Assembly (NCBI RefSeq): GCF_003334815.1
Contig: NZ_QOWO01000011.1
Length of the DNA: 64,000 nucleotides
Strand: one strand, 5' to 3'
DNA from: Escherichia coli
GTDB taxonomy: Bacteria > Pseudomonadota > Gammaproteobacteria > Enterobacterales > Enterobacteriaceae
Shown here: positions 35,671 through 35,916 of the stretch, one piece after another
Layout: each line of letters starts with the position of its first letter
Position numbering within the stretch: position 1 is the stretch's first letter
Position numbers and translations under genes: made by a program
Notes under the pieces: generated by a model
Told to the model about the DNA's origin: nothing
Seen by the model: the letters and a program-made list of their open reading frames with translations, nothing else
The model's database searches: none

Positions 35671-35861
35671 TTACATTCCCTATGTATTATATATTAATTA
35701 ATATTCATTGATTATATGAATATAAGCAGACTGCTCGTTAAGAACGATACCGGAATATTTAATTGGCGTCAGTGAGCGAATGACTTAATTTTGTAAGTCG
35801 CTGTAACGGTGAATATAACCCATTAGCAGATAATATTTATTAAGGGGCTATGTTTTATTTG

Positions 35862-35907
35862 CTGAATATATAAAAAGAGTCATTAAGAAGGCCAGAATTC
35901 TCTGGCC
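35862..35907 (-). terminator. Candidate terminator after cysG
   Basis: Hairpin ggccaga/tctggcc (35890-35907) just 3' of the cysG stop, with a T-rich tract further downstream on the minus strand. Confidence 0.35.
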
Positions 35908-35916
35908 CGGGTTAAA

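Follow-up and report, generated by a model that had tools for sequence, protein, structure and literature searches.

An AT-rich, H-NS-bound spacer with the cysG terminator and the yhfL promoter region in Escherichia coli

The DNA analysed here (the window, 64 kb in length) is Escherichia coli chromosome, K-12-like and in reverse orientation. The block under study, at 35671-35916, is the whole 246-bp gap from the yhfL start codon to the cysG stop codon, both genes lying on the minus strand; in K-12 (NC_000913.3) it corresponds to 3499202-3499447. The initial annotation had placed an AT-rich block between these two genes, and its coordinates coincide exactly with the gap. The genes and their boundaries are as follows.

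37309-38115, minus strand: nirC, the first neighbour in the minus-strand order nirC, cysG, yhfL, frlA
35917-37290, minus strand: cysG (siroheme synthase), the last gene of nirBDC-cysG, a 457-aa open reading frame (b3368 in the K-12 annotation)
35917-35919, minus strand: TAA stop codon of cysG, which bounds the AT-rich block
35503-35670, minus strand: yhfL, a DUF4223 lipoprotein with an LTAC lipobox, a 55-aa open reading frame of GC 0.42 with its ATG at 35670
35426-35462, minus strand: intrinsic terminator of yhfL, a hairpin at 35437-35462 followed by UAUUUGUUUCU
33871-35259, minus strand: frlA, the neighbour gene downstream of yhfL

The small gene yhfL, named earlier without being among the listed reading frames, is confirmed by the 55-aa frame, whose protein matches Pfam DUF4223 over its full length (E 5e-38), and the K-12 annotation likewise describes a DUF4223 lipoprotein. 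The RNA of its terminator folds at -18.1 kcal/mol (z -4.3, with 0 of 200 shuffles equally good), and because it has this strong terminator of its own, yhfL looks like a monocistronic unit.

The spacer has a GC content of 0.321 over its 246 bp, against 0.524 for the whole window, which bears out the claim that the block is far richer in A+T than its surroundings, and the AT-rich run tattatatattaattaatattcattgattatatgaatataag, given as an example, is present at 35686-35727. Across all 246-bp windows in the 64 kb (mean GC 0.525, sd 0.044) the spacer lies about 4.6 sd below the mean. Windows equally low in GC make up 0.12% of the total, every one of them within the spacer block, and this is the lowest-GC 246-bp block of the 64 kb (minimum 0.289, with the next-lowest blocks at 0.346-0.354). 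The intergenic DNA of the window, when pooled, has a GC of 0.435. Among the 33 intergenic spacers of at least 50 bp in the K-12 annotation the cysG-yhfL spacer ranks third lowest in GC, and it is the lowest of those of at least 130 bp. The argD/pabA spacer (44853-44937, GC 0.306) and the nirD/nirC spacer (38116-38240, GC 0.312) are comparably AT-rich, and the cysG-yhfL spacer is the AT-rich end of a continuous distribution and no anomaly. At the same time, its A+T content is well above average over at least about 100 bp, as is typical of H-NS-bound AT-rich regulatory DNA. The high-affinity nucleation motif of H-NS is tCGATAAATT-like, and a scan with this 10-mer gave one match at no more than two mismatches against 2.1 expected in shuffles.

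The AT-richness of the spacer stems from TpA/TATA-type sequence, TpA steps being enriched 3.3-fold (13.9% in the spacer versus 4.2%). The description of the block as curved was not supported: a dinucleotide wedge model, whose profile is indicative only, puts the mean curvature of the spacer in the 3rd percentile of 246-bp windows, with a predicted maximum of 12.4 degrees per turn (83rd percentile). The three A/T tracts in the spacer, of 4-5 nt (at 35789, 35853 and 35872), are unphased, and A-tracts phased at about 10.5 bp are absent from it. What the spacer shares with curved, A-tract-phased upstream DNA is its high A+T content upstream of a promoter, but it differs from such DNA in having no phased A-tracts and a predicted curvature below the window average.

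From the cysG stop codon towards the yhfL start codon, the spacer contains the following elements.

35890-35907, minus strand: hairpin of the cysG terminator, with arms GGCCAGA / TCTGGCC (35890-35896 and 35901-35907) and a 4-nt loop
35862-35889, minus strand: tail of the cysG terminator, in its K-12-type haplotype UUCUUAAUGACUCUUUUUAU, with a short, interrupted U tract
35810-35889, minus strand: most variable stretch in the haplotype alignments, about 80 bp, with substitutions and indels
35736-35741, minus strand: candidate -35 element TTAACG, 19 bp upstream of the distal -10
35711-35716, minus strand: candidate distal -10 element, a perfect TATAAT hexamer that ends 41 nt upstream of the ATG
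35701-35723, no strand assigned: perfect 8-bp inverted repeat ATATTCAT-N7-ATGAATAT, centred on the distal -10
35686-35691, minus strand: second, proximal perfect TATAAT, which ends 16 nt upstream of the ATG and has TAATCA 17 bp upstream of it
35676-35681, minus strand: Shine-Dalgarno sequence AGGGAA, 5 nt before the yhfL ATG

Directly 3' of the cysG stop codon we found a stable, GC-rich hairpin of the kind that marks an intrinsic terminator, and its RNA (GGCCAGA-GAAU-UCUGGCC) folds at -14.5 kcal/mol (z -2.8). In four E. coli haplotypes 28 of 28 pair cells are paired, with one compensatory change from C-G to U-A and one G-U, a count that is statistically weak with four sequences only. The earlier reading of the spacer as promoter DNA was largely supported, but it had omitted this terminator at the cysG-proximal end. 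A scan for consensus promoters and terminators gave no match inside the spacer and left the cysG terminator uncalled; the hairpin was probably missed since the stem, when lengthened by G-T pairs, takes up the first two T of the tail.

The tail of this terminator has two common forms in E. coli. The K-12-type tail reads UUCUUAAUGA in this window, with UUCUUAAU as the U-tract part after the stem, and the other common haplotype carries UUUUUCGUUU after the hairpin, a canonical long U tract. Among 5426 complete E. coli genomes, 3175 (~58%) have the K-12-type tail and 2156 (~40%) the long-U tail, LF82 being a strain of the latter type. With rho-independent terminators at operon ends the cysG terminator shares a GC-rich hairpin of 7-8 bp immediately after the stop codon and a compensatory change, whereas the K-12-type tail differs from them in a 4-base gap and substitutions; because these leave only UUCUU beside the stem, this tail is, by its sequence, sub-canonical. 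Rarer and longer spacer haplotypes, of the E69 and SCPM types, measure 275-279 bp and have a GC of 0.26-0.28.

At the yhfL-proximal end, the spacer offers two perfect TATAAT hexamers as -10 elements of a sigma-70 promoter, and a sigma-70 consensus scan found in it no -35 close to TTGACA at a spacing of 16-18 bp, the best candidates being TTAACG at 19 bp or TAATCA at 17 bp. The -35 varies among haplotypes (TTAATG, CTAACG, TTAGCG), and 5 of 7 E. coli haplotypes keep the distal -10 unchanged, the remaining two having TATAAA and CATAAT. To judge from these motifs, the distal TATAAT with its poor -35 is most likely the core promoter. The proximal TATAAT is the less likely promoter, because it would leave almost no leader and because it is TATTTT in the E69 and SCPM haplotypes, the two most divergent ones. 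Transcription of yhfL would then start near 35704-35706, and its mRNA would carry some 35 nt of 5' UTR. Folded as RNA, this leader is unstructured (-1.8 kcal/mol, z +0.8, no better than shuffles). No mapped transcription start site of yhfL was found in the published supplementary tables searched, and we therefore infer the exact promoter position. Further upstream, a TGTAA-N5-TGTAA tandem (TTACA-N5-TTACA on the yhfL strand) occupies 35792-35807, about 122-137 bp from the ATG, inside a block conserved in 7 of 7 aligned E. coli haplotypes, the most divergent included; the form of this tandem is reminiscent of the direct repeats recognised by response regulators, for instance CpxR or OmpR. PMC5961368 quotes two promoter names, yhfLp4 and yhfLp5, that look to us like RegulonDB computational predictions. 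Furthermore, yhfL is transcribed: Aquino et al. 2017 (PMC5217608) give it an FPKM of about 121 in their control sample.

Published data sets place both RNA polymerase and H-NS on this DNA. In Table 3 of Shimada et al. 2014 (PMC3946193) the cysG>yhfL spacer appears with a genomic SELEX peak of the sigma-70 holoenzyme, and the corresponding row, 'cysG > HNS > yhfL', names TTAACG-19-TATAAT as the best promoter match, which is the element found independently here. The HNS mark in that study denotes an H-NS SELEX site, in vitro, within the same spacer. A sigma-S holoenzyme SELEX peak was reported at 3497370 (U00096.2), at about window position 35770 (Shimada et al. 2017, PMC5493296). Compared with the other 'constitutive' sigma-70 and sigma-S promoters of these two studies, the yhfL promoter spacer is listed there with an H-NS mark, and its element combines a poor -35 with a spacing, 19 bp, that is not optimal; what SELEX detects is binding and not initiation. 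In vivo, H-NS occupancy was mapped by ChAP-seq in K-12, SE11 and SE15 (Higashi et al. 2016, PMC4720273), and row 635 of S3 Table (yhfL/cysG) gives H-NS binding as TRUE, meaning bound in at least one of the three strains. The same row has tail-to-tail as FALSE and known promoter as TRUE (transcription unit yhfL), and an average pairwise distance of 0.058, against medians of 0.016 for bound and 0.0067 for unbound spacers. The known-promoter flag comes from RegulonDB and may rest on predicted promoters. In S2 Table of that study, a class column reads h, H and h for nirB, nirD and nirC and x for cysG; the codes h and H may denote H-NS binding.

The proposal that the block is H-NS-bound DNA is upheld by both the SELEX site and the ChAP-seq occupancy. 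The presumed yhfL promoter in the block fared well in its position upstream of yhfL and in the published binding of sigma-70 and sigma-S RNA polymerase, but less well in that no mapped start was found. The initial annotation had made its reading depend on a transcription start or nucleoid-protein occupancy in the region, and of these the occupancy is documented, with no mapped 5' end found. Set against the H-NS-bound class II regions of PMC4720273 (regulatory, tail-to-head), among which it is itself listed, the cysG-yhfL spacer shows no difference in kind: like them it is AT-rich, has a promoter and above-median diversity, and lies upstream of a small, poorly characterised gene. Unlike large horizontally acquired islands, it belongs to the core genome.

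None of the 5426 complete E. coli genomes lacks the locus. Compared with the window, the spacer is at least 99% identical in 2540 of them, 95-99% in 641, 90-95% in 1508 and 80-90% in 739. The 3' end of cysG is moderately polymorphic (at least 99% identity in 1653 genomes, 95-99% in 2687, 90-95% in 1070), and the yhfL coding sequence is nearly invariant within the species. Within the spacer, the ~150 bp nearest yhfL are better conserved than the rest. This variability fits the pattern described by Higashi et al. (PMC4720273), whose general finding was that H-NS-bound regulatory spacers diversify faster. The window itself has a C at 35751 where K-12 has an A; its exact spacer occurs in 0 of the 5426 genomes, the best identity being 99.6%. 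In strain 1283 (NZ_CP023371.1) an IS1 element has inserted 2 bp upstream of the yhfL ATG, with a target duplication of 9 bp (TACATTCCC, window positions 35672-35680), and cuts yhfL off from its promoter region.

Beyond E. coli, 22 of 39 species-representative loci keep cysG and yhfL side by side (Escherichia, Citrobacter, Enterobacter, Leclercia, Lelliottia, Cedecea, Buttiauxella, Pseudocitrobacter and Hafnia), with spacers of 124-507 bp and a GC of 0.26-0.47. Homologues of yhfL are also found in places other than next to cysG, with some genomes carrying several, and in many genera the DNA upstream of them is AT-rich (GC 0.25-0.37 in most, other gene contexts included). We found no promoter footprint across genera: 16 cysG-yhfL spacers align only at the ribosome-binding site, and a 6-mer enrichment in 30 upstream regions returned only clade-specific elements that are missing from E. 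coli. Evidently, the region of the yhfL promoter was either exchanged between genera or has changed so far that it can no longer be recognised. In Citrobacter, Enterobacter and Superficieibacter (loci L006, L007, L009-L011, L014, L019, L026 and L030) an AAATGGA-N4-5-TCCATTT palindrome lies about 36-68 bp upstream of yhfL, and a GGACTA/AGTCCT hairpin lies further upstream in the same three genera; both are absent in E. coli. The palindrome may be the operator of a putative regulator.

The spacer is thus very probably a composite of the cysG terminator, filler and the yhfL promoter region, whose AT-rich DNA serves as an H-NS platform that would damp yhfL. In the direction of transcription (minus), the intrinsic-terminator hairpin comes first and would end the nirBDC-cysG transcripts, followed by about 80 bp of fast-evolving filler and lastly by the better-conserved ~150 bp with the yhfL promoter, a short unstructured leader and the ribosome-binding site. 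The core promoter would consist of TATAAT at 35711-35716 and TTAACG at 19-bp spacing, and sigma-70 and sigma-S RNA polymerase can bind the same spacer DNA unaided. H-NS, for its part, has in the AT- and TpA-rich DNA a platform to bind, from which it would damp transcription of yhfL. This reading builds on the composition, the gene context and the hairpin observed here and on the published in vitro binding of RNA polymerase and H-NS and in vivo occupancy by H-NS; from these we infer the repression of yhfL by H-NS, the hexamers in use and the start site. An AT-rich, H-NS-bound spacer with the yhfL promoter and the cysG terminator is a real feature and is already in the literature. It is a textbook-type AT-rich, H-NS-bound promoter spacer before a small lipoprotein gene that is uncharacterised, and its importance hardly extends past bookkeeping. 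A modest value lies in its being a natural case for how H-NS-bound regulatory spacers diversify within a species, and in the question of whether a degraded terminator tail alters the coupling between nir-cysG and yhfL.

Among the alternatives, it is possible, if rather unlikely, that the AT-rich spacer is passive, a terminator tail, a promoter and filler brought together under AT-biased mutation, with incidental H-NS binding and no regulation of yhfL. The equal AT-richness of the argD/pabA and nirD/nirC spacers within a continuous GC distribution would agree with this, as would the H-NS 10-mer not being enriched, the fast evolution of the middle of the spacer and the yhfL FPKM of about 121 in one data set, from which the gene is not fully silenced. 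What counts against a passive spacer is that H-NS binding to it has been observed both in vitro and in vivo, and that AT-rich DNA is kept upstream of yhfL homologues across genera and gene contexts though the sequence itself cannot be aligned.

We also considered an extension of the composite reading, and judge it unlikely, in which the two tail haplotypes differ in function, through read-through of nirBDC-cysG into yhfL, and the repeat at the -10 is the operator of a repressor. The 4-base gap would have shortened the U tract in ~58% of genomes, including K-12 and this window, and nitrite- and anaerobiosis-induced nirBDC-cysG transcripts might then read through in K-12-type strains and not in the ~40% of genomes with the long-U tail. 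If true, this would be a lineage-specific natural rewiring of a small lipoprotein gene inside an H-NS-bound spacer.

The inverted repeat also enters a separate proposal. Its arms, at 35701-35708 and 35716-35723, are conserved in the aligned haplotypes, and an equal inverted repeat arises in 15.5% of dinucleotide shuffles, so that it is not significant alone. The consensus of Nac is ATA-N9-TAT; an exact match occurs once in the spacer, at 35701-35715, and is present in 31% of shuffles. We consider it quite unlikely that the spacer is primarily an operator for a specific repressor such as Nac, acting at this repeat or ATA-N9-TAT site as the main control of yhfL. The position of the conserved repeat and of the only exact match on the distal -10 would suit such an operator, and Aquino et al. 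2017 (PMC5217608) report both a nearby Nac ChIP-seq peak and, on Nac induction, a stronger reduction for yhfL than for any other gene (FPKM 0 versus 120.78). However, both motifs are expected by chance at the frequencies given, and a zero count for the 168-nt yhfL in a single comparison is fragile. Moreover, in window coordinates the Nac peak interval spans 35757-36114 and leaves 35701-35723 uncovered; its summit, at 35984, falls within cysG, and a one-mismatch ATA-N9-TAT is found there instead (35969-35983). Direct repression by Nac at the -10 is unsupported, since the ChIP interval misses the site, and control of yhfL by Nac is no more than a lead.

A horizontal origin was weighed as well, in which yhfL and its flanks would be an old low-GC islet, inserted after cysG and before the frl operon and kept silent by H-NS as foreign DNA. 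Consistent with it, the whole of 35209-35916 is low in GC (0.32 and 0.41 in the two spacers, 0.42 in yhfL), and yhfL homologues are found elsewhere than next to cysG and in multiple copies. The breadth of the cysG-yhfL adjacency across genera and the presence of the locus in every one of the complete E. coli genomes make this origin very improbable, and no mobility genes or repeats flank the locus. That the block encodes a small RNA, a riboswitch-like leader or a mini-ORF is close to excluded: apart from a length, 246 bp, that is long for a tail-to-head junction, nothing favours it, the ORF listing holds no frame of at least 20 aa inside the spacer on either strand, Rfam 15 covariance models gave no match at E <= 1 over 35200-36100 on both strands, and against it stand also the leader fold, no better than that of shuffles, and the cross-genus alignment confined to the ribosome-binding site.

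On the other side of yhfL, the yhfL/frlA spacer (35209-35502) has a GC of 0.41 and holds the only sigma-70-like match of the scan, ATTACA-16-TATATT with a TG, at 35315-35288 on the minus strand, presumably the frlA promoter. According to a 2026 preprint, adaptive mutations arose in parallel in the DNA between yhfL and frlA in germ-free wild-type mice; as evidence on the cysG-yhfL spacer we set it aside, since it concerns this other spacer instead. In strain FCI56 an IS1A element accompanies the loss of yhfL through part of frlC. Over the 64 kb of the window, 15 single-base mismatches to K-12 MG1655 are scattered, among them 35751, 61506, 49193, 44738, 40634 and 31427. In addition, about 51 bp of yhfS are missing relative to K-12 at window positions 29379-29390, where two collinear BLAST blocks share 12 bp on the window side and 63 bp on the K-12 side, a pattern that suggests a deletion between short direct repeats.
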